DNA of 64,000 bases from an uncultured Candidatus Saccharibacteria bacterium (GTDB lineage: Bacteria > Patescibacteriota > Minisyncoccia > Minisyncoccales > JANBVM01), in contig CAYVDD010000001.1 of assembly GCA_964450805.1 (NCBI GenBank), forward strand, positions 6,595-70,594. The letters are read 5' to 3'. Under the pieces are notes generated by a model. That model was not told the DNA's origin. It saw only the letters and a list, made by a program, of their open reading frames with translations, and ran no database searches. Shown piece after piece: positions 25,517-42,420 of this stretch. Both the position numbers and the translations under genes were made by a program. How positions within the stretch are numbered: the stretch's first letter is position 1; every line of letters begins with the position of its first letter.

Positions 25517-25546
25517 CTAATTCTATTCTGACAGATTTTGTCACTT

Positions 25547-25575
25547 TTGACAATAAGATTTTGAAGGTTTATAAT
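25547..25575 (+). promoter_or_regulatory. Consensus promoter of the plus-strand island operon
   Basis: TTGACA (25547-25552), a 17 nt spacer, then TATAAT (25570-25575), in the divergent intergenic region. Confidence 0.65.
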
Positions 25576-25587
25576 GGAATCAGAATT

Positions 25588-25767: not shown

Positions 25768-25776
25768 GTTCAAAAA

Positions 25777-26583: not shown

Positions 26584-26586
26584 ACT

Positions 26587-27420
26587 ATGCCTCTTTTTAG
26601 TAAAAAACAAGTATTAAATTTAAAATTGAATTCAATTCCACTCCCTTTATTGAGAGAATTAGCCTTAAAATTACGAATAGATACCAAGGGGCGGAGTTCC
26701 GACGTTATTAAAAGAATTCTTTCTTCCGATGCGGAAGAAAGAGTAATGGATCATTTTATCAAAGAAAAGTATTCAGAACAGATTGAAGAAAGGAGGTCTT
26801 TAATTTCTGACGAAGAACTGAAGAAGGAATTAATGAAAGTGGAAAGTTTTTCTTGGGGCGTGGTTCAAGGACAATTAGATCGGAAAATTCAGACTGAATA
26901 TGTAAGAAAGTTTGTTAGATATAAAGAATTAATAAGCGCTGTTGGAGACAGGCTTCATCAAGATGTTACTAATTATGTTATTTGTACATGGTTTAATCAT
27001 TGGACGACTGTGTTGATAGAAGAACACATAAGTCTGCATCCCAACGTGATACCAACGCTTAAAAATATAAAAGGGGTTGATGTATTTTTTGATGGTCAAC
27101 CATTTGATTTAAAAACCAGTCCTTTACCCCGAGATTACGACCCTCAAAAAGCTATTAATAACCCAAAGGATTTATCTGTCTGGATGTATGAAAATCAGGG
27201 AGCACAAAGATTTGGGGCAGACAATAGATTATTTGTAGTGTTATTTGACCAGAATGAACCAGAAAGGAGTTGGGAGCTTAAAAGAGATTTTGGTTTAGTT
27301 TTCCAAAAAATTGATAATTTTTTTGATAAAGAGACGATAACTAATAAAGATGAAATAGCGTTCACCTTTAATAGAAAATCTTATACTACCGTATCTAAAG
27401 TTCTGATTATTACTAAATAA
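26587..27420 (+). CDS. Putative type II restriction endonuclease with SAP-like N-terminus
   Basis: It starts 3 nt after the methyltransferase stop. The N-terminal LLRELALKLRIDTKGRSSDVIKRIL is SAP-like. A possible PD-(D/E)xK element is GVDVFFDGQPFDLK. Confidence 0.3.
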   Translation: MPLFSKKQVLNLKLNSIPLPLLRELALKLRIDTKGRSSDVIKRILSSDAEERVMDHFIKEKYSEQIEERRSLISDEELKKELMKVESFSWGVVQGQLDRKIQTEYVRKFVRYKELISAVGDRLHQDVTNYVICTWFNHWTTVLIEEHISLHPNVIPTLKNIKGVDVFFDGQPFDLKTSPLPRDYDPQKAINNPKDLSVWMYENQGAQRFGADNRLFVVLFDQNEPERSWELKRDFGLVFQKIDNFFDKETITNKDEIAFTFNRKSYTTVSKVLIITK

Positions 27421-27456
27421 TCCTTAGGATATTGTATATTAGCCAAAGAGCTCACT

Positions 27457-28554
27457 ATGGAGCAATTTTTGTTTGAAAGGATCGGCGCTAATTTATTTTG
27501 TGAAAGTAAAATGAAAATCAGTGTAAGGTTAAAAATTGAGAAAGTCGATGGAGGAAAAGAGAGGTTGGTTGAATTTGTGGTGGATAGAAAGAAAACCGTA
27601 ATTAATTTGGAAGAATTTAATAAAAAATATAGTAAATTTTCAGGAGCAACAATTTTTACTGAAGAGAGAATTCCAGAAGACGCTAATATAGCTGAAGAAA
27701 TAGAGGCTACAACTCAGCCTTCATCAATTGCCACCCCCACGATACCTTTTAAAGGATTCATAAAGGATTTATTCAATGAGGCAGTTAATAATAGTGTTAC
27801 AAACGAAGTGGTGATCGAGGCCGAGGAAGATAAGTTTTTACATCTTCCTTGGGAAGAGATATGTGAAGATGGCCAGAGTCCGTCTATACTGAAAAGAGTA
27901 AAGAATAAGAAACATAAAAACGAGAGAAGAAATATAGACATTCCCAAAAGAATTTTAGTTCTGAGCTCGGCGGCTAGAGATCTTATGGGTCAAACCCAAT
28001 CAGAGAACTTATCAGAGGACACTAAATTAGAGATAGACGAGATTATTAAGTTAAAAAACCAATTATATGATAGTAATATCAACAGGAGAATAGAATATAT
28101 TTTTATGGTCAGGAATTTTAGTATTGGGAGTAAGATTAAAGATATTCCTCAGTGCGATATTTTACACCTAATTTGTCATGGAGAGCTTAATGGAACGGTT
28201 TGTATTAGCGATGTAAACAGACCCAATGAGATTCATAGAGTTGATAGCGCTAAATTTATTAAATTATTGGCTGGACGGAAATTTTATATAGGTTATCTTT
28301 CTCTTTGTCACTCGGGGAGCGGTTCAAAAACCAAAAATAGCTTAGCGTATGAACTAGTTAATAATGGTGTATGTAAATACTGTATAGCTTTCCAGAGAAG
28401 TATTAGCTCCACGAAATCAATTGAAATTGCCGAGAGATTTTACGCCTGTTTATTTCAACATGATTTTAATGTCATTGAGGCATATAAAGATCTATGTCGT
28501 GGCAGAAATGATTTTAGCGTGATAAAAGAATTAAGGCCATTATTATATCTTTAA
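27457..28554 (+). CDS. CHAT-domain (caspase-like) cysteine protease
   Basis: CHAT landmarks appear in order: FLHLPWEEI, RILVLSS, catalytic His in DILHLICHG (His241, nt 28177-28179), and catalytic Cys in YLSLCHSGSG (Cys284, nt 28306-28308). Confidence 0.6.
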   Translation: MEQFLFERIGANLFCESKMKISVRLKIEKVDGGKERLVEFVVDRKKTVINLEEFNKKYSKFSGATIFTEERIPEDANIAEEIEATTQPSSIATPTIPFKGFIKDLFNEAVNNSVTNEVVIEAEEDKFLHLPWEEICEDGQSPSILKRVKNKKHKNERRNIDIPKRILVLSSAARDLMGQTQSENLSEDTKLEIDEIIKLKNQLYDSNINRRIEYIFMVRNFSIGSKIKDIPQCDILHLICHGELNGTVCISDVNRPNEIHRVDSAKFIKLLAGRKFYIGYLSLCHSGSGSKTKNSLAYELVNNGVCKYCIAFQRSISSTKSIEIAERFYACLFQHDFNVIEAYKDLCRGRNDFSVIKELRPLLYL

Positions 28555-28558
28555 AACC

Positions 28559-31500
28559 ATGAACAGAGGAAAATACAACATAAGGGGAATTAATTATCAA
28601 CAATGGGCTGCGATAGCTTTATTTTTGCAGTATTTAAGATTCAATGACTTCGAAAGCATCCACTTAGAAGCACCGAAATCTCAAGATTTTGATCTACTGT
28701 TTAAGGATAGAAAAATTATTTGTGAAGCAAAAGATTGGCAAGGACAGTTTTCGACCTCCCATTTATTGAAAATCCTTAAAAATATTCGGAACAGAGTTAC
28801 TTTTGCAGAAAATGATGAGATATTAATTGTTGCCAGCAATGTTAGTGATAGACTGATTAACAATATTGAAAATTATAAATATCTTAGAAGTTTTAGACAG
28901 AAATTGAAGCCGAGATTTAAAAATTATAGCGACGCGGAATTAGAGTTGTTACCACGCATAAGATTTTGGCAAGTAAGCAAGAATATTTTAGAGAATATAG
29001 TTTATGCTTTATTTTCAGAAGCCATTGGATTTTGGCTACCACAAGATGATTTAAGAGAAAAATTAAAAGCTATTTTGATCGATAAATTTTATGAAGGGTC
29101 AGCAGTAGAGAAGGTTTATACAAAAGCTGAATTTTTAACTAATATTCAATCTATTTCCAAGAAAACAGTTGGAAAAACTACATTATTCAATGACGAATTT
29201 AGAAGTTTAGATCAACAATTTTCTAATCTTATTCAAGATATAAAAGGAAATAAAAAACCTCAGTGGGGCGATTATGATATGTCGTCTTTGTCTGCCCAAC
29301 CGAATAAAATGTTTTTCGTATTAGAACGAGTAAAAAAAGAAAAGTTTGATTTAAAGGAGTGGGAGAGACTGTGGAACGTAATATCCCTTAAGCCATATTA
29401 TTATAGTTTATTTCAAATTTTTGAAAACAATTTAGATAATGCGAGAAATAAAGAATATATCTTTCAGTTTATTAAAGCTAATATAGGAGAAATAAAAAGA
29501 TTTTATCATACAGATTTCTTCGATGTTGATGTGGTCAAGATCGCAAAAAAGATTTTAGAAGGCGATAAAAGCAACAAATTTATTAAGAATGCCTTTGAGG
29601 TTGTGAAGAAACTGATTAGCGAGAGACGAGATGACATCTTTTATTTAAAGACACAACGTGATAGTTCTTGGGAGCGAGGGGAGATAGCTAAGCTGCTGAA
29701 AGAAGTTTATGAGAAGGCTGACCCTGAATTAAAGGATAAAATATACAAGTTAATAGTTGATACTTTTAACCTTGTTAAAGATGAGGGTGAATTTAGTCAT
29801 TACACGCCTCGAGAAATTTTCGGAATTTTAAAAGCTTGGCTGGAGAATGACTTCGAGAAAAGATTGCCAATTTTAACGGGGGTTTTATCTGATCAATATG
29901 ATAGTTCCTATAAAAAATTCGGTAAGAGATTAGAATTTAAAGGATGGGAATATATGGGTGGCGTAACTTCTTTTTGGGGACATCGTTATAGTGTTTCAGA
30001 TAGGCATTTTATCGGCTATACTTTAGAGCCTGTCTTAAGAGAGTATTACGATAAAAACAAAAGTAAAAACAGAGCTTGGAAGTTTATAATTAAGCACTGC
30101 ATCAGCAAAACAGAAGAAGTTAGTAAGAAACGACCTGATTTTCTGAATCGGGCAGTTATACCGATTGTTTTAAAAAGATATGAGAGTGGTGGCCGAGAGA
30201 CATCGAGAGAAGCTTTTGGGATCTTGAAAGAGTTTATATTGTCTCGTAAAGGCATACCTCATAAGTCAGATTTAATCTATCAAGAACTTAGGGGGAAAGG
30301 TTCATTTCCTAAGGAAAAGAAGTGGAAATTAGTCAAAGTGAGTATCAAAAAATACGATATTCCAGTGAATGTATTTGTTGAAGAGATAGTTTCACAGTTG
30401 GCGAAAGAGGGACATCAAGATGCTAAAAAGACAATGAAAGAGTGGTTAAAGAACCCAAAATACTACGAAAGGTTTAGAAGCGAGATAAATATCTTACAAA
30501 ACATTCGTGCAGTGTTGGAAAGCGATTTTGCCTATGCTATTGGAATGTTCGAAGAATTCATTAGTAGTAAGCAGTTTATTCATAACTATGACAGCTTTGA
30601 AACTTATGAATTCGCTATTTTACTTTACGATATTTTGAAGACGGAGAAGGGTTTTGCAAGAGGATTGAAAATCCTAAAAAGATTGTCACGAGAAAAAGAA
30701 CTAAGTAAAAATCAACAGATTATATTGTGTTTCAGTTTATTTAATTACCGAGGAAACGATGAATCAGATGACTTGAGGTTGTTGGAGAAAGTATATAAAG
30801 AGTTTGTCGATTCATTACTTGGCGATTGTAACAATGATATCAAAAGAATTTGTGAAAAATTAAGTTTTAGCCAAGCTCGGGAGGCGCTAGTACAATTTGC
30901 TGGAAGGTTAGCCCACCATAAAAAAATAAAAGAAGCTTTGAGAATAGTAGAAGTCTTCATTGATGACCCAGATCCTTATTTACCGAATAAAGACCCAGAA
31001 GATCCAAAAAATGAATATAACGAGCATAAAAGAATTGAAGAGGGTAAAGAACCTGGTACGATTACTTCAACTCGCGGCTGGTGTGCTTGGGTTTTAATGA
31101 AGTGTTCCGTTCTAAGCGGTCGTGATTATATTCCGAAGATTATCGCTCTCACAGCCAAACTTACAAAAGATAAAAATTGGTATGTTAAGCATATGGCTTG
31201 TTTTGCCTTATCTCAATTGGCACAGAATCGTTTAACTGTTTTACCAGATAATAGAGATGTTTTATTCTTTGGTGATAACAAAAAAACAGCACTGAAAAGG
31301 GCAAAAAGGGTTGAGAAGGTAGCTTTTGATTTATTAGAAGAAATAGCTAAATCATCTAATAATGTTCAGAAAGCTTTAGCAAAAAGCATATTACATGTTT
31401 TTGATCACCTCCGTGCTTTAAATAAGAAAGATGCTTTGAAATTCGTGAAGATACTTGCAAAGTTTCCAGATGAAGCAAATGCCGAAGCAGCTCCTCTATT

Positions 31501-32191
31501 CATATTTTTTGCTGAGTTTCGTAAAAATGCTTTCAAGAAATGGAAATGGGCAATGACAAATTTATATAATGATCTATCGCCAGAGAAATTCGATGATAAA
31601 AAATTTAAGAAAATACTGTTAGAAGTTATGGATAACTTACCACCAGATAAGAGATTTCCATTCGTAGTTCAGTTCGAACATTTGATAAGAAATTTAAATT
31701 ATAGTTTAAAAGATGCAGAAAGATTGTTTAAGATTGCTTATAAATACCTTAATCATCTTTCAAATAAATATAGCCACGAAGTTTTTCGAGTGATTTATAT
31801 GTCTATAAAAGAAGGAATGGAGAAAAAACGACATTTCTGTAAATGGTATGACCTGTATATTAAATGCTTAAAGAAAGAAAAGGAATTTTATGATAAGAAT
31901 TTTACAAAGAATAAAGCGACGGAGATGTCTTGGTGGCCATCTTACTATAACGAGGATATTTTATTGCTTGTATATCAGCAAGGCAGTAAGAAAGAGTTTT
32001 TAGATGCTTTTGATATTATTACCTCATTTCCTAAGGAATTGGAGATTCATGATTCTCCTAATATTGTTTCCTTACTGGGAAATTTCTCCAAGAAGAATAA
32101 ACGCGTCAAATCAATAGTTGAACGACTCTTCCAGAGAAATCAGATTAAATACTATGACTTGAGGAATGAATGGTTCGCTGACGACAAATAA
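28559..32191 (+). CDS. 1210-aa protein: Cap4/DUF4297-like PD-(D/E)xK nuclease N-terminus plus long alpha-helical (HEAT/ARM-like) repeat region
   Basis: N-terminus RGINYQQWAAIALFLQYL..IHLEAPKSQDFDLLF..KIICEAKD matches the G-x-x-YQ / E..D-x-D / E-x-K order of Cap4-type nucleases. The rest is helical with HEAT-like segments such as WYVKHMACFALSQLAQNR. It starts 4 nt after the CHAT stop. Confidence 0.5.
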   Translation: MNRGKYNIRGINYQQWAAIALFLQYLRFNDFESIHLEAPKSQDFDLLFKDRKIICEAKDWQGQFSTSHLLKILKNIRNRVTFAENDEILIVASNVSDRLINNIENYKYLRSFRQKLKPRFKNYSDAELELLPRIRFWQVSKNILENIVYALFSEAIGFWLPQDDLREKLKAILIDKFYEGSAVEKVYTKAEFLTNIQSISKKTVGKTTLFNDEFRSLDQQFSNLIQDIKGNKKPQWGDYDMSSLSAQPNKMFFVLERVKKEKFDLKEWERLWNVISLKPYYYSLFQIFENNLDNARNKEYIFQFIKANIGEIKRFYHTDFFDVDVVKIAKKILEGDKSNKFIKNAFEVVKKLISERRDDIFYLKTQRDSSWERGEIAKLLKEVYEKADPELKDKIYKLIVDTFNLVKDEGEFSHYTPREIFGILKAWLENDFEKRLPILTGVLSDQYDSSYKKFGKRLEFKGWEYMGGVTSFWGHRYSVSDRHFIGYTLEPVLREYYDKNKSKNRAWKFIIKHCISKTEEVSKKRPDFLNRAVIPIVLKRYESGGRETSREAFGILKEFILSRKGIPHKSDLIYQELRGKGSFPKEKKWKLVKVSIKKYDIPVNVFVEEIVSQLAKEGHQDAKKTMKEWLKNPKYYERFRSEINILQNIRAVLESDFAYAIGMFEEFISSKQFIHNYDSFETYEFAILLYDILKTEKGFARGLKILKRLSREKELSKNQQIILCFSLFNYRGNDESDDLRLLEKVYKEFVDSLLGDCNNDIKRICEKLSFSQAREALVQFAGRLAHHKKIKEALRIVEVFIDDPDPYLPNKDPEDPKNEYNEHKRIEEGKEPGTITSTRGWCAWVLMKCSVLSGRDYIPKIIALTAKLTKDKNWYVKHMACFALSQLAQNRLTVLPDNRDVLFFGDNKKTALKRAKRVEKVAFDLLEEIAKSSNNVQKALAKSILHVFDHLRALNKKDALKFVKILAKFPDEANAEAAPLFIFFAEFRKNAFKKWKWAMTNLYNDLSPEKFDDKKFKKILLEVMDNLPPDKRFPFVVQFEHLIRNLNYSLKDAERLFKIAYKYLNHLSNKYSHEVFRVIYMSIKEGMEKKRHFCKWYDLYIKCLKKEKEFYDKNFTKNKATEMSWWPSYYNEDILLLVYQQGSKKEFLDAFDIITSFPKELEIHDSPNIVSLLGNFSKKNKRVKSIVERLFQRNQIKYYDLRNEWFADDK

Positions 32192-32197
32192 TTTAAG

Positions 32198-32401
32198 ATG
32201 AAAAAGAAAGTAATCAAAAAATCTAAAAAATGGAAACCTAAAAGAAAGTGGATTGAGTCGATAACCATTAACATGAAAACTGGGAAGTCAAAATATAAAT
32301 ATTTTACCCCAAAAACTCAAAAGGAGGAGGAAAAATTAGAAGCTGAATTTGATGAAAAAATGAAACAGGTTTTCAAAATCCTTTTCCCTCACGGAATTTA
32401 A
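32198..32401 (+). CDS. Small basic hypothetical protein
   Basis: 67 aa and Lys-rich. It lies 6 nt after the 1210-aa gene and 1 nt before the next gene. Confidence 0.4.
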   Translation: MKKKVIKKSKKWKPKRKWIESITINMKTGKSKYKYFTPKTQKEEEKLEAEFDEKMKQVFKILFPHGI

Positions 32402-32402
32402 T

Positions 32403-32882
32403 ATGGTAAAAGAAATTAAAAAACTGAAAATAGATTTTTTATACTTAGATTTATCAACTTGCGATAGATGTCGGGTAACCGACGAAGTGCTTGACGATGC
32501 TTTAGGTGAGTTGAGAGAAGAAATAAGAGACGTAAAAGAGATAACGATAAATAAAATTAAGATAACCAGTGATGAGGAAGCGAAAAGATGCGATTTTGTT
32601 AGGTCGCCTACAATAAGGATAAACGGCGTTGATATTGAAAAGATTTTATCTGGGAGATTGGAAATAAAAGACAATTACTGTAAGTCATGTGCAAGCGTTT
32701 GCGACGAAACCTGTTCAGAATCTACTGGTGGCGGGACTCAGTGCAGGACTGTTGAATATAAAGGCAAGACATACGAGGCAGTTCCCAAAGAAATGATAAA
32801 AGATGCGATAAAGAAAGTGCTGGGAATAAAAATAAAAAAAGAACCCAAAAGGAATAGGGTAGAAAGTTCATGTTGTGGGTAG
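32403..32882 (+). CDS. DUF2703-like thioredoxin-fold protein with Cys-rich tail
   Basis: LYLDLSTCDRCRVTDEVLDDAL...VRSPTIRINGVDIE. Confidence 0.45.
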   Translation: MVKEIKKLKIDFLYLDLSTCDRCRVTDEVLDDALGELREEIRDVKEITINKIKITSDEEAKRCDFVRSPTIRINGVDIEKILSGRLEIKDNYCKSCASVCDETCSESTGGGTQCRTVEYKGKTYEAVPKEMIKDAIKKVLGIKIKKEPKRNRVESSCCG

Positions 32883-32902
32883 ATTTAAGCTAAACACTCA
32901 TT

Positions 32903-32965
32903 AAACAGGTTCGGATGGCGTTTAGTTGGGGGAGCTGCTATCCCGAGCCAAGAGCTCGGGTTTTT
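32903..32965 (+). repeat. Junction element copy 1 (F)
   Basis: aaacaGGTTCGgatggcg..ggGGAGCT, then the hairpin cccgagccaagagctcggg (32942-32960) and ttttt. It is followed by TTGACA (32981-32986), 17 nt, then CATAAT (33004-33009). Confidence 0.7.
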
Positions 32966-33030
32966 GGTATAAACCATTACTTGACATTCCCAAAATCCTA
33001 ATTCATAATATATAACAGGTGGTTTAAAAA

Positions 33031-33968: not shown

Positions 33969-34448
33969 TCAGTCCAGTCTGATTCTGTGAGGGACACCCG
34001 CGACCCAGATTTCAAGTTCATCGCTGCAAGAGTTTTGTATGTGATTTGATTCTTTGCATTTACTGCAATCTCTTTTGTGTTCACCGAGCTGGACCATACC
34101 GTGGCGTCCTATCCACGGATTAGCTGTAATATCTTTTCCCGTGTGTATTAATTCAGTTATGACTTTATCTGGAATTATTTTTTTACTCATTTGGCTGCAT
34201 ACCTGTTGGCATTTGTCGCATTCGTTCACAATAGAACAATAACCAAAGTTATGTTTTCCTATTAGCAGTAGACCATCTAGAGTTTTAAAAAAAGAAAGTA
34301 TTTTCTCTATGGTCGTTTCTTTTCTATGTATAAAGTCATAAGGATTTCTTTCTAAACCTTCTAATGATTCCATTTCTTTCATATTATCCACCTCAATTTT
34401 TATTTTAGCTATCTTAGGCATATCACCTTTTGGTTTTTTTGTCAACAA
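33969..34448 (-). CDS. Cys/His-rich hypothetical protein (only antisense gene in the array)
   Basis: 159-aa ORF with CDKCQQVC and CSKCKESNH clusters. The tracked start is a TTG, so the true start may be an internal Met. Confidence 0.4.
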   Translation of the reverse strand: MLTKKPKGDMPKIAKIKIEVDNMKEMESLEGLERNPYDFIHRKETTIEKILSFFKTLDGLLLIGKHNFGYCSIVNECDKCQQVCSQMSKKIIPDKVITELIHTGKDITANPWIGRHGMVQLGEHKRDCSKCKESNHIQNSCSDELEIWVAGVPHRIRLD

Positions 34449-34473
34449 ACAAATAGAGTCAACTCTTCAAATT

Positions 34474-34558
34474 TTTCTCTAATTTTCGTCCAATCTATAG
34501 TTCTGAACGCGTCCAACAGGGGGAGTTAGCTTAGCCCGAGCCAAGAGCTCGGGTTTTT
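34474..34558 (+). repeat. Junction element copy 2 (A)
   Basis: tttctctaattttcgtccaatctatAGTTCTgaacgCGTCCaacaggGGGAGTT, then the hairpin cccgagccaagagctcggg (34535-34553) and ttttt. It is followed by TTGACA (34569-34574), 16 nt, then CATAAT (34591-34596). Confidence 0.75.
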
Positions 34559-34602
34559 AGTTGTAGGCTTGACAAAATTTTCATAGTGTGCATAATTAGA
34601 AT

Positions 34603-34700
34603 AGATGATACTAGAACCCACCATAATAGAGGTGGAGCGCTGGTGAACAAAAGCCTGGGGGCACAACAAAAAAACAATGACCTCCCGGGCTCTTTTTTTT
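34603..34700 (+). ncRNA. Candidate small RNA (promoter-to-terminator unit without convincing ORF)
   Basis: It begins just after the 34569-34596 promoter. It has an internal hairpin ccacc-ataataga-ggtgg and a terminal stem gcctggggg/ctcccgggc followed by tctttttttt. The only ORF is 13 codons. Confidence 0.3.
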
Positions 34701-34827
34701 CAAATTCATAATTTCATATTGTGAGCTTGAAAAAGCCCGAAACTCCGCTAAGCGGGGTTTTTGTTTTGACTTTTTAATTAAAGCTAGTAATGTAAAAATA
34801 GTTAAGAAAATGAGGTGGTTCTTTTAA

Positions 34828-35220
34828 GTGAAGAAAACAGCAAAAACAAAAGACTTTTTAAGAGGATATTCCAAAAGAGATATTACTATTCGTTTTGATC
34901 CTGACAATTTAGAATTACTCCCGTGTCATTGTAAATATGATCCTGATCTTTCAACGAAAGAAAGAAATAAAGAAATAAATAAAGTAATGCTTCTGAAAGA
35001 GGTAGAGATACAGAATAAAGATGGTTCTTGGAGCCCTTACCCCAGTATTACTTGGTTGATGGAGGTAGAAGATGAAGACCAATTTTTAACAAAAGCATTA
35101 GTGAGGTTGACTGGAGAAAAAGAAATTACTGTTGTTTCTTCTTCTAACTGGGGACCAGATTCAGTACTTATGGATGCAGCCAGAGAGGTAGGTATATATA
35201 CAGAGACTATAGAAGCTTAG
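34828..35220 (+). CDS. Hypothetical protein
   Basis: GTG start with a GAGGTGG Shine-Dalgarno upstream. 130 aa, with its own terminator at 35244-35273. Confidence 0.5.
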   Translation: MKKTAKTKDFLRGYSKRDITIRFDPDNLELLPCHCKYDPDLSTKERNKEINKVMLLKEVEIQNKDGSWSPYPSITWLMEVEDEDQFLTKALVRLTGEKEITVVSSSNWGPDSVLMDAAREVGIYTETIEA

Positions 35221-35266
35221 AAGATAATATAGAGTTCTTTATTAGTGGTTTGAAATATAAGCCACT

Positions 35267-35402
35267 TTTTTTATTCTAAAGCCTCAATTAAATAGGTTCT
35301 AACATCGTCCGTCCCTCGGAACTAATTGTATAAAATTGCATATAATTGGATGTAATTGTATAGGGAAATTTATCAAGGCTCGAGTGGCAGCTCGGGTTTT
35401 TG
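35267..35402 (+). repeat. Junction element copy 3 (G, with internal insertion)
   Basis: ttattctaaagcctcaattaaataGGTTCTaacatCGTCCgtccctCGGA, then a ~55 nt AT-rich insert with aattgta repeats, then the hairpin ctcgag-tggcag-ctcggg (35379-35396) and a T-run. TTGACA follows at 35405-35410. Confidence 0.7.
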
Positions 35403-35472
35403 ATTTGACAAAAAAAAGAGTTGAAGTAAGATTAGCTATTAACAATAACAAAATAATGGAGAGTGTAGTTAT

Positions 35473-35784
35473 TTGCCTGTAAGAGTAAATAAAAGAGATA
35501 TAAATTGGGCTATTGTGATTATTGACCCTGAAGACGAAGATTCTAAGTTTGTTTTGGATAAACTAAAGGAGATAGGTATTAAATTTTCAATAGTAAGACT
35601 TGGACCTAAGCAGCATGGCTATAATGTAGAGCTTAGTCTTTTTGCCGAAGTTGGGGACTTTACGGAATTCTCAACTCACCTAAGGCCTCCTATCTTCGTA
35701 GTAGAACATTCATATTTCCCAGGCAAGGCTCCAAAAATCAGAATTTTCCAAGGGAAGATTCCTATAAGCCACGCTTTTGTTTAA
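35473..35784 (+). CDS. Hypothetical protein
   Basis: TTG start 9 nt after GGAGAG. 103 aa, with a terminator-like hairpin at 35817-35850. Confidence 0.4.
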   Translation: MPVRVNKRDINWAIVIIDPEDEDSKFVLDKLKEIGIKFSIVRLGPKQHGYNVELSLFAEVGDFTEFSTHLRPPIFVVEHSYFPGKAPKIRIFQGKIPISHAFV

Positions 35785-35866
35785 AAGAATTCAGATATTA
35801 AAATCATTATCCAATAAGCTGAGAGGACTATTCATCTCGGCTATTTTTTATTCCAGAGTTCTCACT

Positions 35867-35929
35867 AAACAGGTTCTAACATCGTCCGTCCCTCGGAGCC
35901 GCCAGCCCCGAGCCAAGAGCTCGGGTTTT
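35867..35929 (+). repeat. Junction element copy 4 (H)
   Basis: aaacaGGTTCTaacatCGTCCgtccctCGGAGCc, then the hairpin cccgagccaagagctcggg (35907-35925) and tttt. Promoters follow: TTGCTA-16-TATAAT (35951-35978) and TTGCCA-17-TATAAT (36017-36045). Confidence 0.75.
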
Positions 35930-36048
35930 GATTATAAACTAACATTTTCTTTGCTAGCACTAAGCTCCTGCCTATAATACTGTTTACGAAGCGGAAAAAA
36001 AATAAGGTTGTGGAATTTGCCAAGAGGCTAATTTTTTAGTATAATTCA

Positions 36049-36462
36049 TTGGTGAAACATAAGAAACAAAAAGAAATTCTCTCCTATATTTTGTCCCTTA
36101 AAGAAAGGGCAGAGAATTTACGTGAAGAACTTGATAGTTGGGAAGTGAAGCCTAAGATAAATAAGCGAATAAAGAGCGTAGACGGTAATTCAAAAGCTCT
36201 ACGAATAATAACCAAAATAGGTTCAAAGATAGAATTGACGGAAAGAGAAAAAAAACGATTAACAAGATTGATCAAGCGTAGACTAAGTTCACTTAAGAGA
36301 CATTTTCTATCTGTTTACAAATTAGTTCAAAAGAACCCTACTAAGATATGGAATAAAAGAATTAGAATTACTGAAAGAGAATTAGAAGAACGCATAGCTA
36401 TTTATGAAAATATTCTTCCATTAATATTTAGAAAAAAGTCTAAGACTTCAAAGAAGAAATAA
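36049..36462 (+). CDS. Lys/Arg-rich coiled-coil hypothetical protein
   Basis: 137-aa ORF starting at TTG/GTG. No recognisable domain. Confidence 0.4.
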   Translation: MVKHKKQKEILSYILSLKERAENLREELDSWEVKPKINKRIKSVDGNSKALRIITKIGSKIELTEREKKRLTRLIKRRLSSLKRHFLSVYKLVQKNPTKIWNKRIRITERELEERIAIYENILPLIFRKKSKTSKKK

Positions 36463-36480
36463 ATTTTTTAGCTTGGAAAG

Positions 36481-36583
36481 GCCCAAGACTTTCTCTAATT
36501 TCACCCCAATCAATGGTTCTGAAAGCGTCCAATAAAGGGAGCTCAGAAAAAAAATCGCCAGTATGGCGGTTTTTTGTTAGAAT
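36481..36583 (+). repeat. Junction element copy 5 (B)
   Basis: agactttctctaatttcaccccaatcaatGGTTCTgaaagCGTCCaataaaGGGAGCTc, then the hairpin aaaatcgcca-gta-tggcggtttt and the extended -10 TGtTAGAAT (36575-36583). Confidence 0.75.
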
Positions 36584-36589
36584 AGCAAT

Positions 36590-37231
36590 ATGAATAAGTT
36601 TAAATTAGTTTGTTTTGACGTAGACGGAACCTTGGTTGAGGGAATCTCTTGGGTTTGGTTAACTAAGGGCTTAGGTTGTTCGTCAGAGAAACATATTGAT
36701 ATTTTTAATCGTGCCACAAGAGGAGAAATTTCTTTTACTAAAGGTGAAAGAATGTTGACTAAAATGTACAAAGAGAGCGGTAACGCTACAATGAAATTTA
36801 TAAGAAAACTCTTTTCTGAAATTAAATTAAGGCCTGAAGCCAAAGAAATAATTTCATATCTGAAGAAGAAAAATTATAAGGTCTATCTTATTTCAGGAGC
36901 GATTGATATTTATATAGAAGAAATGGCTAAAAAGTTAAAAGTAGACGGGTTTTATGCTAACTCATCTTTGGAGTTTACCGAAGACGGCGTTCTTGAAAAA
37001 ATTTACTATAGAGATAACCAAGGAGAAGTAAAATTAGAACAGCTAACAAGCTTAATAAGAAAAATTGGAATAAAAATGAATGAAGTTGTCTTTATTGGGG
37101 ATAGCGATAACGATATAGAAGTTTTTAAAGAAACAGGGCATGGAGTTGCTGTTGAGCCTTCAAGTAAGAAGTTAAAAAGCATAGCTTGGAAAATAATAGA
37201 TTCATTAGAACAAATTAAAGAAATTTTATAA
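36590..37231 (+). CDS. HAD-superfamily hydrolase, subfamily IB (phosphoserine-phosphatase-like)
   Basis: Motif I CFDVDGTL, motif II LISGA, and motif IV GDSDNDIEVF. The ATG lies 6 nt after the -10, suggesting a leaderless mRNA. Confidence 0.7.
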   Translation: MNKFKLVCFDVDGTLVEGISWVWLTKGLGCSSEKHIDIFNRATRGEISFTKGERMLTKMYKESGNATMKFIRKLFSEIKLRPEAKEIISYLKKKNYKVYLISGAIDIYIEEMAKKLKVDGFYANSSLEFTEDGVLEKIYYRDNQGEVKLEQLTSLIRKIGIKMNEVVFIGDSDNDIEVFKETGHGVAVEPSSKKLKSIAWKIIDSLEQIKEIL

Positions 37232-37277
37232 AAACAATCAGATTCTTAATAAAATTGCCCTCTGGGTCTAATCTTTA

Positions 37278-37421
37278 GGTTCTATAAATCCTCTTAATCT
37301 CCACTAATTTCTCCGTCATCATCCCCATATACTCCCTATTTTCAAGCACCTCTATAACTTTTCTAATAATTGTTGAACTGGGGAGTTCTTGAAGTCTGAG
37401 ATTATTTCTCGGATTTTGACT
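37278..37421 (+). repeat. Junction element copy 6 (E, divergent long form)
   Basis: aGGTTCTataaatcc...ctGGGGAGTTCttgaag, then the hairpin tctgaga-ttattt-tctcgga and tttTGACT (37416-37421). Confidence 0.55.
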
Positions 37422-37451
37422 TTTTAATTATTTTAGATAATATAAAAAATT

Positions 37452-38012
37452 ATGATTAAAGTAGGAATAATAGGTCCGACAAATCTCCCAAAGTTGAGTA
37501 AATTAACGAATAAATCTAAAGATTTTCTACTAAAAAAAGCTCAAACCATCGGAAAGATTCTTGTTGAGAAAGATTGTGAACTCTGGATTAACAGTGATAA
37601 AGGAATGCTTGTAGCTGTTGGTAGGGCATATAAGAAATTTGGCGGAAAGAAACTTATTGTTTTGTATCCAGATAAGGGAGAACCTTGGCCAAAGAAGCAC
37701 GCACTGCCATATATAAAGTATGCCGATGAACTTAGAAAAGAAAAGGATTGGTTTTGGTCTAATTATAATGTTACAGCATTACCTGATTTATGTGTCTGTG
37801 TTGGCCTTAGTGCAGGTACTTTAAGTGAATTAGCCTATATTAAATGGAATTACACATTGAATCGTGGCAAGCTAAAGAAATTAATTGGAATCAAAGAACT
37901 TCTTAGAGATGGTAAATTTCCACCAGAGGTAGAGGTTGATATAAAGGAAATTATCCAGTATATGGAGAGAACAGAGGATTTAGGAGATTTTCTAGAGAAA
38001 TTTAAAGAGTAA
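37452..38012 (+). CDS. SLOG/LOG-like (TIGR00725-type) Rossmann-fold protein
   Basis: VGIIGPTN, GMLVAVGRAYKKFGGKKLIVLYP and CVGLSAGTLSELAYI resemble the GGxGTxxE-type SLOG pattern. Confidence 0.4.
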   Translation: MIKVGIIGPTNLPKLSKLTNKSKDFLLKKAQTIGKILVEKDCELWINSDKGMLVAVGRAYKKFGGKKLIVLYPDKGEPWPKKHALPYIKYADELRKEKDWFWSNYNVTALPDLCVCVGLSAGTLSELAYIKWNYTLNRGKLKKLIGIKELLRDGKFPPEVEVDIKEIIQYMERTEDLGDFLEKFKE

Positions 38013-38028
38013 TTCTATTTAAATAAAC

Positions 38029-38135
38029 ATTTTATTCATTTGAGTCTTTCAAGGAATTGAAAGACTCAAATGAGGAAGTAAGAAAAATACATCAAAAAAT
38101 GTCTATTAATCTATATAGGCAGTTTTTTGTTAGCA
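38029..38135 (+). repeat. ~105 bp direct repeat R1, copy 1
   Basis: It contains the perfect hairpin tttgagtctttcaa-ggaa-ttgaaagactcaaa, then tgaggaagtaagaaaaatacatcaaaaaatgtct...ataggcagttttttgtta. It is near-identical to 40490-40592. Confidence 0.85.
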
Positions 38136-38240
38136 TTAAAAACCCGACGAAATTGGGTTTTTAATTTTTACCTTGACTTTTCTGGAAAACTTTATAAGCT
38201 AATTTCAGAAAACATTTAAAATTAAGAGTGAGAGAATGAA

Positions 38241-38747
38241 ATGAAATTAAAAGAAAGAATTAATGAGACTATCAAAATAATCTCTGCGAAAAAAAATATT
38301 GGTTCTAAAATGGATAAAATCAGTAAATTATTCCTGGAAGCAGAAAATAAATCATTAATAGATTTTAAAGAAGCAGTGAAAAAAAAGGGGAGAGAATGGG
38401 ACGGTGAGGTTCTAGTTACCCATTCTTATAATGAACAAGACGGTTTAGGCTGGATAGATCTTGAAAAAGTAACTGTTAACGAAAAAGAAATTGAGATCTC
38501 AATAGAATATTCAAAATTTACGGAGATGTTGAGCGAATTGGAAAATATAAAAATAATTTTTTCTAAGGATGAAATCTTAGAAAAGATTATTTATGAATTG
38601 AGTCAGACATTTGACTTCGAAGAGAAGAAAATTATATTACTGAAAGCAGAAATAATTTTTTCAAACGGTGTTATAATTAATGTAGAAACAGAACAAGAGT
38701 TAAGTGCGGAGAATATTATAATTGTCTACCACAAGAAGTTAAGTTAA
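38241..38747 (+). CDS. Hypothetical protein
   Basis: 168-aa ORF with the terminator gccttg...caaggc plus a T-run at 38779-38811. Confidence 0.45.
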   Translation: MKLKERINETIKIISAKKNIGSKMDKISKLFLEAENKSLIDFKEAVKKKGREWDGEVLVTHSYNEQDGLGWIDLEKVTVNEKEIEISIEYSKFTEMLSELENIKIIFSKDEILEKIIYELSQTFDFEEKKIILLKAEIIFSNGVIINVETEQELSAENIIIVYHKKLS

Positions 38748-38811
38748 AATCGTATATATACACATGTATATAACTACAGCCTTGATCTAATTAAAAACAA
38801 GGCATTTTTTT

Positions 38812-38940
38812 ATTCAAAATCCAGCTAAAATAGAGCCTAAATCTCTAAGACTTTCCCTAATTTCTCTCCAATCAACGGTTCTGACGCGTCCAATAGGGGA
38901 GCTCGTAAAAATCGCCAAGAAGGCGGTTTTTTGGCATAAT
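38812..38940 (+). repeat. Junction element copy 7 (C, full-length form)
   Basis: tattcaaaatccagctaaaatagagcctaaatctctaagactttccctaatttctctccaatcaacGGTTCTgacgCGTCCaatagGGGAGCTcgtaaaaatcgccaagaaggcggtttttt, then the extended -10 TGgCATAAT. Confidence 0.8.
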
Positions 38941-38984
38941 AAAGTAAAGGTAAAAATATTTTATAAATAGTAGAAAATAAAACT

Positions 38985-39284
38985 ATGTCAGGGTTTATTG
39001 ACTTTATAAGAAAACAAGGAGTAATAGGTTTGGCTATTGGTTTTATATTAGGTGCTGCTGTTTCAAAAGTAGCAGCGGCTTTGGTTGAAGATATTATTTA
39101 TCCAATTCTCGGTGTAGCACTTGGTAAGGCAGGAGGCCTTGCGGCTGCCAGTCTTACTATAGGAAGTGTTGAGATACTTTGGGGTCATTTCATAGGGATC
39201 ATTATTGACTTTCTTGTTATTGCCTTAGTTGTGTATTACGTTGTTAAAGGGTTTAAATTAGACCAATTAGACAAGAAAGATTAA
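38985..39284 (+). CDS. mscL: Large-conductance mechanosensitive channel (short form)
   Basis: GVIGLAIGFILGAAVSKVAAALVEDIIYPILG matches the MscL TM1 signature. The 99-aa length is shorter than typical. Confidence 0.75.
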   Translation: MSGFIDFIRKQGVIGLAIGFILGAAVSKVAAALVEDIIYPILGVALGKAGGLAAASLTIGSVEILWGHFIGIIIDFLVIALVVYYVVKGFKLDQLDKKD

Positions 39285-39340
39285 TAGAAATTCTAATATA
39301 ACTATAAAGTCGGCACTTTTACCGTTGCATTTTTAATAAG

Positions 39341-39408
39341 ACAGGTTCTAACCTCGCCCAGTCCCTGTAGTTTTTGAAGCCTTGTCAAGGTGGGGTTCTT
39401 GGTTGACG
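39341..39408 (+). repeat. Junction element copy 8 (I, degenerate)
   Basis: acaGGTTCTaacctCGCCCagtccctgtag..tttgaagccttgtcaaggtggggttcttggTTGACG. Confidence 0.55.
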
Positions 39409-39467
39409 AGAAAGGGTAAATAGATTAGAAATAAGTTAGTAAAATAACTTAAAATTTAAAAACATAA

Positions 39468-39809
39468 TTGGTGATTAGATTGTCTGATGCAGAAAAGAAT
39501 TATTTTCTGGATTTTAAAGATTGGTCAAGCGATAAAATTGATTGGAATGTAAAGGATATTTTTGAAAAATCATTAAATACAATAGGAACCGACAAATTTA
39601 ATGATTACATAGAAAATTATGGTAATATTATGAGGAAAGCAAACAAGGCTTTTAGGAATCTTGTGAATGAGACTAGAGATCTTTTCATATCTCTATTTAA
39701 TTTGATCAATAAAAAGACTTCTTTGAGAGATAAAAAGATACTCATTACGATAGATACATTGTTTTATGAGTGGAAGAGAGGTTTAGATTCACGGATTAAA
39801 TATAAATAA
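39468..39809 (+). CDS. Hypothetical protein
   Basis: 113-aa ORF starting at TTG/GTG, with the terminator gagagg...cctctc plus a T-run at 39832-39864. Confidence 0.4.
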   Translation: MVIRLSDAEKNYFLDFKDWSSDKIDWNVKDIFEKSLNTIGTDKFNDYIENYGNIMRKANKAFRNLVNETRDLFISLFNLINKKTSLRDKKILITIDTLFYEWKRGLDSRIKYK

Positions 39810-39864
39810 TTTTTTTAAAATTGAATTATTTGAGAGGTAAAAAGACTTTTCCTCTCATTTTTTT

Positions 39865-39996
39865 ATTCAAAATCCAGCTAAAATAAGCCTAATTTTATAA
39901 GATTTTCCCTAATTTCACCCCAATTAATGGTTCTGAACGCGTCCAATAGGGGGAGCTTTGAAGCCCGAGATTGTTTCTCGGGTTTTTGGTTTGACA
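39865..39996 (+). repeat. Junction element copy 9 (D, full-length form)
   Basis: tattcaaaatccagctaaaataagcctaattttataagattttccctaatttcaccccaattaatGGTTCTgaacgCGTCCaatagGGGGAGCTttgaag, then the hairpin cccgaga-ttgtt-tctcggg, ttttt, and TTGACA (39991-39996). Confidence 0.8.
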
Positions 39997-40458: not shown

Positions 40459-40489
40459 TTTATTCAAAAATTTAATTTTTTTTATTTCC

Positions 40490-40592
40490 TTTTATTCATT
40501 TGAGTCTTTCAAGGAATTGAAAGATTCAAATGAGGAAGTAAGAAAAATACATCAAAAAATGTCTTTAATATATATAGGCAGTTTTTTGTTAT
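40490..40592 (+). repeat. ~105 bp direct repeat R1, copy 2
   Basis: Same sequence as 38029-38135, with a few substitutions by eye (for example gactc to gattc in the hairpin). Confidence 0.85.
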
Positions 40593-40675
40593 TTTAAGTA
40601 TTAAAAAGCTTTTAACATCACTCCTATTTTTACCACCATTTCTTCAGGATTTTCAATAAAACCAAGCCCTTCAAA

Positions 40676-40707
40676 GGTTCGAAAATTGTGCGATAGAGGC
40701 GGTTTTT
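40676..40707 (+). repeat. Junction element copy 10 (M, highly degenerate)
   Basis: aaaGGTTCGaaaattgtgcgatagaggcggttttt. Only the GGTTC core and the ggcggttttt end are retained. Confidence 0.35.
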
Positions 40708-41133: not shown

Positions 41134-41214
41134 TGTTGATTAAATAAAGACCAAAAGACAGCTAATTGCTGTCTTTTGTCTTCAGGAGAAACACTGCCAG
41201 AGATTGAACTTATA

Positions 41215-41320
41215 AAACAGGTTTTAACATCGTCCGTGCCTCGGAGCAGACCAAGACGCTTTAGGCGTTAGTGCGACCGACAAACATAAAATCGCCATAA
41301 TGGTGGTTTTTTGATATAAT
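41215..41320 (+). repeat. Junction element copy 11 (J)
   Basis: aaaacaGGTTTTaacatCGTCCgtgcctCGGAGCa...aaaatcgccataatggtggtttttt, then the extended -10 TGaTATAAT (41312-41320). Confidence 0.7.
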
Positions 41321-41366: not shown

Positions 41367-42356
41367 ATGAATACATATTTTAGTAATAGTTCTATAAGAA
41401 GAGCTAGTTCCGTAAAAAACACTAATTCAGTTCAGATTTTTGTTAGATTATTTGTCTGGATAATTTCTTTTGTAATTTTAGGAATTATTTCGATGATGGC
41501 TAGAGGAGAGTCGGTTCAAGGCATAGAAAGCTTTCTATCATTAGGAATTCTTTATATTTTACTTAATGCTTGGCTAGCTAGTGTTATATCAGGCATGTTT
41601 CACATTCTTCCTGAATGGCAGAATATGGTTCTTTTGAAATTGGGAAAATTTGATAGTGTAAGAAAGGCTGGATTTTTCATAATTCCTCCTTTTGTTTATT
41701 CAATAGCATCTATCGTTGATATCAGAATTGAAACTCGTCAGGTTGAAGCAACTAATACCCTTACTAAAGATAATGTTCCAACAAAAGTAACAGCAGCTGT
41801 TGAATTTAGAATAGAAGACTCAAGAAAAGCTGTGATTGATGTTCAAAACTATAGACAATCAGTCATTTGGTTAGCTACCGAAGCTTTAAAGAATACAATC
41901 GGTAGCATGACTTTAAAAGAACTTCTTAGTGAGCGAGAGCAAATCGCTATTTCTTTAAAAGAACACATTGATAAAGGAGCGGTTGTTTACGGAATAGATG
42001 TTAGAGCGGTAAGAATTACTGATATTGATACGCCTCAGTCACTTATTGAAGAATTGGCCGTTATAGCTAGGGCTAGGAGAGCAGCTGAGGCTAAGAAAAT
42101 ACAAGCTGATGCTGAAGTTCAGGTTGCCAATAAGATTTTTCAGGCAAGCGAGATTCTAAAAAGAAGCTCTGGAGGCATGAGATTAAGAGAGCTTCAGGTT
42201 CTGAATGAGATGAGCAAAGAAGAAAGCTCAATGGTTATTGTGTATCCTTATGGTGATAGAGCAGGCCAAGGAATAGCTAATGCAGCAGCTGGAACGGAAA
42301 AAAGGGATGTAAAAGAAAAAAGTAAAGAGAATCAAGAACTTTTAAAACAAGATTAA
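41367..42356 (+). CDS. SPFH/band-7 (stomatin/prohibitin-like) membrane protein
   Basis: N-terminal TM helices, then VLLKLGKFDSVRKAGFFIIPPF...VDIRIETRQVEA..TKDNVPTKVTAAVEFRI and an A/E-rich coiled coil. Confidence 0.8.
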   Translation: MNTYFSNSSIRRASSVKNTNSVQIFVRLFVWIISFVILGIISMMARGESVQGIESFLSLGILYILLNAWLASVISGMFHILPEWQNMVLLKLGKFDSVRKAGFFIIPPFVYSIASIVDIRIETRQVEATNTLTKDNVPTKVTAAVEFRIEDSRKAVIDVQNYRQSVIWLATEALKNTIGSMTLKELLSEREQIAISLKEHIDKGAVVYGIDVRAVRITDIDTPQSLIEELAVIARARRAAEAKKIQADAEVQVANKIFQASEILKRSSGGMRLRELQVLNEMSKEESSMVIVYPYGDRAGQGIANAAAGTEKRDVKEKSKENQELLKQD

Positions 42357-42366
42357 TTTATCTATC

Positions 42367-42420
42367 AAACAGGTTCTAACATCGTCCTTTCCCCGGAGCT
42401 CGTAAAATCGTTTATTTTTT
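42367..42420 (+). repeat. Junction element copy 12 (K)
   Basis: aaacaGGTTCTaacatCGTCCtttcccCGGAGCTcgtaaaatcgtttatttttt. TTGACG-17-TATACT follows at 42454-42482. Confidence 0.7.

Follow-up and report, generated by a model that had tools for sequence, protein, structure and literature searches.

Repeated gene-cassette junctions in a Saccharibacteria genome as probable attR-type scars of tRNA-Asn-targeting large serine recombinases

Analysis of a 64,000-nt stretch of DNA from an uncultured Candidatus Saccharibacteria bacterium (assembly GCA_964450805.1, contig CAYVDD010000001.1, positions 6,595 to 70,594; the whole stretch is called the window below) showed about 11 copies of a short composite repeat, all on the same strand and spanning 32.9 to 42.4 kb, at the junctions between small gene cassettes. 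Each junction is probably (roughly 80%) an attR-type hybrid attachment (att) site, left when a large serine recombinase (LSR) integrated at the tRNA-Asn(GTT) gene's 3′ end, as judged from sequence comparisons. The junctions share one layout. A variable stretch, whose reverse complement encodes a peptide tail, is followed by the core GGTTC-N18-GGAGC and then by a G+C hairpin with its T-run; a promoter-like site of the following gene usually comes next. Their minus strand encodes L(P/R)xxD(D/A)(V/F)RT and a short tail. A 16-nt degenerate core (GGTTCTRAMNNCGTCC, two or fewer mismatches) occurred eight times in the window, compared to 0.39 expected by chance, and all eight matches were on the plus strand between 34.5 and 42.4 kb. 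A profile scan detected nine significant copies; with the divergent or decayed ones at 32908 and 40676, there are 11 in all. Terminator-like hairpins were also enriched (18 observed compared to 5.3 expected), and the hairpin arm probably serves as a transcription terminator between cassettes as well.

The peptide encoded by the junctions is the C-terminus of a serine recombinase. A search of a species-level genome collection with a 28-nt core pattern found more than 116 loci, and minus-strand translation of 146 copies sorted the part of the motif not constrained by the pattern into three families of tails, each ending at a stop: ..FRT(I/V/L)(D/N)WxxIxxEL(Q/E)FSGI(L/F)E(M/L)F....LQN, ..VRTxIxxxxxYIYIPDL.., and a short one, ..VRTC(L/F/W).. 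Protein searches with the tail only, using two alignments, retrieved just orphan open reading frames (ORFs) of up to 74 aa in which conservation started abruptly at (W/L)L(P/R). By themselves, these searches would have led to the false conclusion that a parent is lacking. No conserved gene was found to read recurrently into the cores among 116 loci. When all ORFs of the loci were clustered, the tail proved to be contiguous with about 100 more conserved residues in L094 and L015 (..YDKKHQEY..YQTTV..SVARRA..KRAFL..LQNP..SPFNLVLELADSPNWL). No family in Pfam or NCBIfam covered this 130-aa C-terminal fragment. It matched 413 proteins, one of them named a site-specific DNA recombinase, and when a profile was run against 1.84 billion cluster representatives, 2826 matches were obtained, including full-length proteins of 485 to 548 aa that begin with a resolvase catalytic domain. 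Pfam assigns Resolvase, Recombinase, and Zn_ribbon_recom domains to two family members, P0222 and P0302. After the conserved ..WL, the family ends in one of two ways, either with WL(R/P)GxDSN(L/P/Q)RP, which is the antisense of the tRNA T-arm (GGTTCGAATC), or with FRT/VRT tails as in the window junctions.

An intact member of this clade is present in the window itself. The search with family proteins (tblastn) located a 535-aa LSR on the minus strand at 21565 to 23172 (PF00239 Resolvase, PF07508 Recombinase, PF13408 Zn_ribbon_recom), in the integrated, tail-less form. Its last codons (..YAQSPTLL-RR and a stop) overlap, by 13 nt and in antisense, the 3′ end of the plus-strand tRNA-Asn(GTT) gene, which was identified at 21505 to 21577 by ARAGORN and Rfam and ends in AGGTTC-N13-GGAGC, an attB-type left arm. 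The original prediction from the window sequence had read the motif as the decayed C-terminus of a minus-strand protein. This reading is borne out by recombinases that end in the peptide, and the accompanying statement that no intact parent is visible in the window was wrong. A metagenome scan for relatives of the window LSR found 426, of which 80 loci were kept, with identities of 45 to 87% and a readable C-terminus in 68. In 42 of the 68, the C-terminus is antisense tRNA, 25 of them on tRNA-Asn(GTT) and 17 on other tRNAs, and in 14 of the 68 the native tail is contiguous, with all three tail families represented. A good example of the latter is the full-length recombinase of L139, 78% identical to the window LSR, whose gene end reads PLRDAFRTIDWSKIKEEL and whose product continues as ..SPTLL-PLRDAFRTIDWSKIKEELEGL.. 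and contains ..SPTLLPLRDAFRTIDWSKIKEELEGL..; L189 (..IVDDVRTIFERQSEYVYIPDL..) and L131 (..LDDVRTCFILL and a stop) have contiguous tails as well. The junction peptide is therefore the native C-terminus of the clade to which the resident enzyme belongs. The other tRNAs that host relatives of the window LSR are those for Gln, Ser, His, Trp, Ala, and Lys (L140 to L142, L145 to L146, L149 to L151, L153, L159 to L161, L164 to L166, L180, and L203). The gene end is always antisense at the tRNA 3′ end, meaning that target specificity was switched repeatedly within one recombinase clade.

Four types of site align with one another, their arms exchanged within GGAGC: attP in L139, L094, and L015; attL in the window, L130, and others; attR at the window junctions; and attB in L110 and L100. 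With the exchange point marked by a slash, attP of L139 reads, in the orientation of the tRNA, CCAATCAATGGTTCTGAACGCGTCCCGTAGGGGGAGC/AACGTCGGACT, or in short form ..GGTTCTGAACGCGTCCCGTAGGGGGAGC/AACGTCGGACT. The attL sites, ..GGTTCGAGTCCTGCCCGCGGAGC/AACGTCGGACT in L130 and ..GGTTCGAGTCCTACCGCCGGAGC/AACGTTGGACT in the window, consist of the tRNA-Asn end and the same right arm. This right arm (AACGTTGGACT..) lies inside the 3′ coding region of the window LSR and is identical in the attP-type relatives. The attR of window copy D is CCAATTAATGGTTCTGAACGCGTCCAATAGGGGGAGC/TTTGAAGCCCGAG..hairpin (short form, ..GGTTCTGAACGCGTCCAATAGGGGGAGC/hairpin), and attB of L110 is the tRNA-Asn end ..GGTTCGAATCCTACCCGCGGAGC/TAAGATTTCAAGCC..hairpin, where the tRNA ends in GGAGC at the exchange point, which is its discriminator end. 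The hairpins that follow tRNA-Asn in L110, L100, L103, L034, and L077 are homologous to those that follow the cores, which identifies the hairpin arm (the right arm of attB) as the terminator downstream of the tRNA and belonging to it. The left arms differ in spacing by 5 bp, GGTTC-N13-GGAGC in tRNA-Asn compared to GGTTC-N18-GGAGC in the junction cores and the contiguous attP sites. In characterized LSR sites, the motif bound by the zinc ribbon domain lies 5 bp closer to the center in attB than in attP half-sites (Rutherford et al., PMC3783163). The N13 and N18 spacings match this published difference exactly, and GGTTC would accordingly be the zinc-ribbon motif.

These alignments suggest a model for how the junctions arose. 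The attP site of these LSRs overlaps the 3′ end of the LSR gene itself, spanning its last 10 to 35 codons. Its right arm encodes ..SP(T/N)(W/L)L, and its left arm, which holds the tRNA-like core GGTTC-N18-GGAGC, encodes L(P/R)xxD(D/A/E)(V/F)RT and a tail of 5 to 35 residues. Recombination with attB, composed of the tRNA-Asn end GGTTC-N13-GGAGC and the downstream terminator hairpin, would occur inside the shared GGAGC. After integration the LSR gene would read into the antisense of the tRNA (attL), and the orphaned native tail would end up fused to the terminator hairpin at the far side of the insert (attR). The LSR presumably catalyzes this integration, and the swap of its C-terminal tail could possibly act as a built-in switch of directionality or activity.

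The anchoring to tRNA-Asn recurs in other genomes. Among the 116 genome loci, tRNA-Asn(GTT) accounted for 17 of the 23 tRNAs in motif loci, and all 17 were upstream of cores and on the same strand. The rpoD gene and tRNA-Asn of the window are syntenic with those of L110, L011, L046, and L073. L110 represents the empty site (tRNA, hairpin, and cassettes) and the window the occupied one (tRNA and LSR). L046 and L110 are 95% identical through rpoD and tRNA-Asn and unrelated exactly from the tRNA 3′ end on. Most of the motif loci are from Patescibacteria, or candidate phyla radiation (CPR) (Saccharibacteria, Parcubacteria, Nealson-, Uhr-, and Moranbacteria), and several are arrays of three to eight copies spaced 0.6 to 2 kb apart. 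The att core was also found in metagenome-assembled genomes (MAGs) with other labels: Actinomycetota (L014, L018, L023, L029, L034, L077, L100, and L103, which have their own conserved arm, ..PRLVCWLPVVDEVRT, and hairpin), Ignavibacteriales (L004 and L043), and Gammaproteobacteria (L008, L020, L041, and L071). The cores and tRNA-Asn-anchored arrays in these non-CPR MAGs reflect either spread across phyla or mis-binning.

In the window, the resident LSR and the DNA up to the first scar appear to form one 11.4-kb element that extends from the tRNA to the scar at 32908. The block from 23227 to 32882, limited by the recombinase/tRNA junction at the left and by the first scar at the right, carries the cargo, which according to Pfam scans includes helix-turn-helix genes, HTH_36, DUF5659, a DNA methylase, a CHAT-like protein, a 1210-aa HEAT-repeat protein, and DUF2703. 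The junction that closes it, copy 0 (32890 to 32967, plus strand; copy F of the original prediction), consists of a minus-strand relic (QLPQLNAIRTCLMSV and a stop), the core GGTTC-N18-GGAGC at 32908 to 32935, and the hairpin CCCGAGCCAAGAGCTCGGG with a T-run. It is probably the attR of the resident element and thus would hold the severed tail of its LSR. This tail (LPQLNAIRTCLMSV and a stop) resembles the RTC(I/L)MS tails of L004 and L043, and a similar tail is contiguous with the end of a related LSR in L109.

Some additional features of the recombinase genes were seen. The 3′ end of the window LSR contains, at 21600 to 21680, a core-like stretch (AGGTTCGAACC..GGAGTC, encoding ..TPEVNAIHNKVRT..) about 22 codons before the true tRNA junction. 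It resembles the LPQLNAIRT relic at 32908 and may be the trace of an older tail that was captured into the gene. Many orphan recombinase fragments of 105 to 150 aa (P0099, P0110, P0116, P0128, P0151, P0186, and P0191) share a start residue, (S)ITKDIYDKKHQEY. At the DNA level there is a sharp breakpoint just before ATTACTAAGGA, with unrelated upstream sequence each time (L119 at about 10066, L120 at about 10087, and L094), and the L094 fragment forms an in-frame fusion with an unrelated ORF. These features point to a second hotspot of recombination or truncation in the LSR gene, as yet unexplained and some 105 codons upstream of the att center. The full-length P0302, which has a contiguous native tail, is encoded in L121 (contig NODE_13879, 22.8 kb) next to genes for ParB, a DNA methylase, and two coupling proteins of the TrwB/VirD4 type, with cytochrome c and DsbD genes alongside. 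The context is that of a conjugative element, and the host is probably non-CPR.

Beyond 32908, ten attR-type scars follow within 9.5 kb, and each closes a cassette of 0.6 to 2.4 kb with its own promoter-like site. Proceeding rightward, all on the plus strand, these are junction A (34442 to 34560; relic LPLLDAFRTIDWTKIREKFEELTLFVC; core 34499 to 34526; hairpin 34533 to 34555); a junction at 35271 to 35401 (relic FRGTDDVRTYLIEALE; core 35295 to 35322; a 56-nt spacer and a hairpin at 35379 to 35396); junction H (35848 to 35931; relic LRGTDDVRTCLVRTLE; core 35872 to 35899; hairpin 35906 to 35926); junction B (36440 to 36578; relic ELPLLDAFRTIDWGEIRESLGPFQAKKFISSLKS; core 36515 to 36542; hairpin 36552 to 36572, followed by an extended −10 element for the next gene), whose left arm is near-identical to that of the L139 attP-type site; and junction C (38814 to 38933; relic ..RTVDWREIRESLRDLGSILAGF, with a 1-nt deletion in the core; core 38877 to 38902; hairpin 38911 to 38927). 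After these come a decayed junction at 39302 to 39371 (position 39344; relic ..GEVRTCLIKNATVKVPTL; profile scan E = 1.7e-4) that has no clean terminator hairpin; junction D (39878 to 39990; relic LPLLDAFRTINWGEIRENLIKLGLF; core 39929 to 39956; hairpin 39961 to 39985, followed by TTGACA); a strongly decayed junction at 40601 to 40705 (GGTTCGAAAATTGTGCGATAGAGGCGG; repeat family D1, 61% identity), whose membership is tentative, as it fell below significance in the profile scan; a junction at 41212 to 41312 (relic LLRGTDDVKTCF..; core 41220 to 41247; a 45-nt spacer and a hairpin at about 41293 to 41305); and junction K, the rightmost (42342 to 42399; relic ELRGKDDVRTCLIDKLILF; core 42372 to 42399), in which the hairpin arm is eroded. 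The hairpins of A, H, B, C, and D and those at 35379 and 41293 are each followed by a T-run, and the relics, except those of 40676 and 41220, end at a stop. Frameshifts and eroded hairpins show that the scars are decaying in place, and in copy A and the 32908 copy an in-frame stop immediately precedes LP. The original prediction had pointed out these two stops and the deletion in C, and its translations of A (LPLLDAFRTIDWTKIREKFEELTLFVC), B (..ELPLLDAFRTIDWGEIRESLGPFQAKKFISSLKS), D (..LPLLDAFRTINWGEIRENLIKLGLF), H (LRGTDDVRTCLVRTLE), K (..VRTCLIDKLILF), and F (LPQLNAIRTCLMSV) were correct up to their stops, although F (32908) and K (42372) fall outside the range of 34449 to 39960 to which it assigned them.

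The genes of the array (32.9 to 42.4 kb) are small, unrelated, and on the plus strand. They encode a DUF523 protein, an HAD hydrolase, a SLOG-like protein, MscL, an SPFH protein, and several hypothetical proteins. The sole reversed gene is a 159-aa Cys-rich ORF without a Pfam match on the minus strand at 33969 to 34448, the start of which abuts junction A. A 75-nt repeat occurs at 38030 to 38104 and at 40490 to 40564 with 99% identity. It contains a long perfect hairpin (TTTGAGTCTTTCAAGGAATTGAAAGACTCAAA), is followed by ..ATATAGGCAGTTTTTTGTTA, and fills two cassette junctions that lack the LSR core (38013 to 38240 and 40459 to 40620). The repeat may represent another type of junction or the end of a mobile element.

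Comparison between genomes showed that the cassettes behave as independent units. Their order is swapped between L014, where cassette c2 precedes c1, and L100, where the tRNA is followed by c1 and then c2, and the cores are where the blocks of homology stop. A swap of two blocks is likewise seen between L061 and L116, one cassette is shared by two arrays (L056 and L078) of the same genome, and a DUF523 cassette recurs in L116 with a core directly after it. The window cassettes hold one or two genes and are too small for an LSR, and no recombinase remnants were detected between the 11 window junctions by tblastn with family proteins. Recombinase-less cassettes thus appear to have accumulated, and this could have occurred by either of two routes. 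In the preferred one, an LSR element would excise with an alternative downstream attR, carry neighboring cassettes off, and later leave them behind. Alternatively, site pairing may be relaxed or the cassettes may be mobilized in trans, as in arrays of the staphylococcal cassette chromosome (SCC), and the changing cassette order suggests SCC-like mobilization of this kind. It is conceivable, at somewhat less than even odds, that the array is a serine-recombinase counterpart of the integron, in which the 3′ end of tRNA-Asn is the fixed acceptor and tRNA-targeting LSRs, working in trans, capture, shuffle, and export promoter-bearing micro-cassettes of 0.6 to 2.4 kb that each terminate in a half-attP scar and a terminator arm.

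The same scars could also be explained with immobile cassettes, as the eroded remains of successive full-size LSR elements at tRNA-Asn that lost their recombinases by ordinary deletion. Decay of the copies is indeed visible in the frameshift of C and the eroded hairpins of K and the 39344 copy, orphan fragments of recombinase genes are common in databases, and canonical LSR directionality offers no simple route to recombinase-less cassettes (PMC3783163). However, tblastn found no recombinase remnants between the 11 junctions, and every cassette is bounded precisely on its left by a hairpin arm homologous to the one after tRNA-Asn. The same 0.6- to 1.1-kb cassettes appear in swapped order across genomes as blocks that end at cores. 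Furthermore, the first integration would destroy attB, and hence an explanation would also be needed for repeated integration at a single tRNA. On balance, erosion of full-size elements is rather unlikely.

A very unlikely explanation is the one offered by the original prediction, in which the junctions record insertions into the 3′ end of a minus-strand host gene and each incoming unit supplies a replacement end, as for SCC at rlmH. The minus-strand coding signature on which it drew is real, the architecture of the array resembles that of SCC composite islands (PMC11470126), and the idea of repeated site-specific insertion holds. What failed is the target, which is the 3′ end of a plus-strand tRNA-Asn(GTT), and the source of the replacement end, as the peptide is the C-terminus of the recombinase brought by the incoming element. 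In addition, no recurrent gene family reads into the cores of the 116 loci, and what lies upstream of LP in the junctions is a noncoding terminator hairpin.

The coding signature itself was evaluated in two ways. First, among codons 1 to 12 of copies A, B, and D, six of the seven variable sites are synonymous (CCC/CCT, CTG/TTA/CTA, GCG/GCT, ACT/ACC, and ATA/ATT), in agreement with the third-position pattern described originally; the excess has a P value of about 0.001 in a post hoc binomial test that assumes that about 25% of random changes are synonymous. Second, 29 unrelated copies from other genomes were compared over the tail, which is outside the constraint of the search pattern. The ratio of nonsynonymous to synonymous change (pN/pS) was lowest in the peptide frame, 0.61 compared to 0.78 and 0.99 in the shifted frames, so the frame-control comparison proposed earlier came out in favor of the peptide, but only with moderate strength because synonymous sites are near saturation. 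Codon position 2 was the most conserved in the peptide frame, and the tail keeps its W, hydrophobic, and acidic positions despite divergence of the DNA. No conserved RNA structure was found on either strand of the tail and core (zero covariation; consensus fold energies of −2.4 and −1.1 kcal/mol), and an Rfam search of the window had no match at the junctions. The low pN/pS in the peptide frame and the lack of a conserved RNA structure together indicate that the coding signal is real. They also bear on the proposal that the motif is a structured RNA (a 3′ untranslated region element or a small RNA ending at a hairpin terminator) or a translated micro-protein. A hairpin resembling an intrinsic terminator does follow the motif, and short ORFs over it are called as genes in some metagenomes, yet compensatory changes, which the original prediction had named as evidence for an RNA, were absent, no start codon is conserved (L is preceded by W, L, K, E, M, or a stop), and the frames are broken in situ. 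This proposal is accordingly highly improbable.

Least credible of all are integron-type attC sites recombined by a tyrosine integron integrase: the array does have small, unrelated, same-strand genes with a repeated element between them, and TCTAACATCGTCCAA bears a loose resemblance to the 5′ half of the aadA attC, but Pfam scans of the roughly 27 larger ORFs between 18.5 and 47.4 kb, to which the scans were confined (small ORFs and the rest of the window lay outside them), gave no tyrosine recombinase family, there is no inverted second half of the site, the tail and core do not fold on either strand (the sole hairpin is the G+C stem with its T-run), the cassettes have their own promoter-like sites, and the element can be shown to be a serine recombinase gene end. 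Two other candidates were rejected. The junctions are not tRNA or tmRNA fragments, since ARAGORN and Rfam find none there and the core, though tRNA-like, differs in length. Nor is the locus a tyrosine-integrase tRNA island of the Islander type. Such islands lie between the tRNA gene and an identical, displaced copy of its 3′ fragment and carry a tyrosine integrase; the distal repeat here resembles the tRNA but is 5 bp longer and continues as recombinase coding sequence, and the integrase is of the serine type.

Several points weigh against the interpretation of the junctions as attR-type scars. First, the support for recombination comes from assembled sequences rather than experiments or reads. 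Second, the right arms (P′, AACGTCGGACT.., and the hairpin, B′) have no clear inverted GGTTC, meaning that the half-sites were assigned from the left arms alone. Third, the only pairs that canonical LSRs recombine are attP with attB and attL with attR (PMC3783163), and arrays of attR without matching attL therefore need either excision and deposit of blocks or relaxed pairing. Fourth, an LSR gene is seldom located within 8 kb of an array in other genomes. Fifth, the link between copy 0 and the resident LSR, which is plausible, comes from position and from the similarity of the tail to those of other loci, and an exact search of metagenomes for the predicted attP of the resident element gave no match. 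Finally, the loci were gathered with a pattern that fixes the core, which makes conservation of the core partly circular, and to this the saturation that limits the pN/pS comparison must be added.

Among known systems, the array is like SCC islands in logic and like integrons in scale, and it is a member of neither. SCC and SCCmec (CcrAB/CcrC) similarly use LSRs at one fixed chromosomal site and form tandem cassettes in direct orientation bounded by att repeats, and in SCC composite islands recombinase-less cassettes (ACME, COMER, and defense cassettes) are mobilized by a resident recombinase (PMC11470126). The cassettes downstream of tRNA-Asn are likewise in direct orientation, with 11 junctions in the window and the same layout in L110, L100, L073, and others. 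The differences are that the target is the 3′ end of tRNA-Asn instead of rlmH; that the coding relic comes from the recombinase gene, whereas the SCC repeat carries the end of the target, rlmH; that the cassettes are 0.6 to 2.4 kb with one or two genes, compared to 24 to 68 kb for typical SCCmec; and that the hosts are CPR and a few other phyla, in which mobilization in trans may occur. As for integrons, the analogy is functional: an anchored site is followed by a variable array of small unrelated cassettes that each end in a recombination site, often with no recombinase nearby, as in integrase-less attC clusters. Unlike integrons, the array involves another recombinase family, no folded single-stranded attC, cassettes with their own promoters and terminators, and a tRNA anchor.

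The recombinase has parallels of its own. Phage large serine integrases (A118/LI, Bxb1, and φC31) have the same set of Resolvase, Recombinase, and zinc ribbon domains, leave hybrid sites after integration, and show the 5-bp attB/attP offset (PMC3783163), whereas most relatives described here sit on tRNA genes and their attP overlaps the stop-proximal codons of the enzyme itself. In the "suicidal" tyrosine integrases of the archaeal SSV1 type, which belong to archaeal viruses or plasmids and have been described as exclusive to archaea, att lies inside the gene and the target is a tRNA, and as a result integration splits the gene, one fragment of which stays behind at the opposite end of the element (PMC8371274). 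The position of att and the tRNA target are the same here, and contiguous and split gene ends were both found. The enzyme, however, is a serine recombinase in bacterial MAG hosts, and only its last 10 to 35 codons are severed, with all recognized domains kept. Searching the literature for serine recombinase islands or integrons in CPR/Patescibacteria brought up no description of such an arrangement, although coverage was incomplete.

Elsewhere in the window, on the minus strand at 56120 to 56273, a tRNA-Pro(GGG) gene has a partial copy of its own T-arm (AGTTCGATTCCCGC) 8 nt downstream, together with a terminator hairpin. This copy looks like a displaced tRNA fragment and is possibly the scar of another integration event.

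These findings explain a conspicuous CPR repeat as a recombination scar with a readable history. They also identify a large clade of tRNA-targeting serine integrases, a type of targeting that was not known for the serine family according to the 2014 Islander paper (PMC4383910), and extend to this family a gene-splitting att arrangement described previously for archaeal tyrosine integrases only. Because attB is the conserved end of tRNA-Asn and attP can be read from the 3′ end of the gene, prediction of att sites becomes almost automatic for hundreds of uncharacterized integrases, which is useful for the discovery of integrase tools. If the cassettes are mobilized in trans, the array would be an integron-like or SCC-like platform for gene exchange in organisms whose horizontal transfer is poorly understood. 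If the array is truly a counterpart of the integron, it would give genome-reduced CPR bacteria, some Actinomycetota, and others access to a cross-phylum pool of cassettes.

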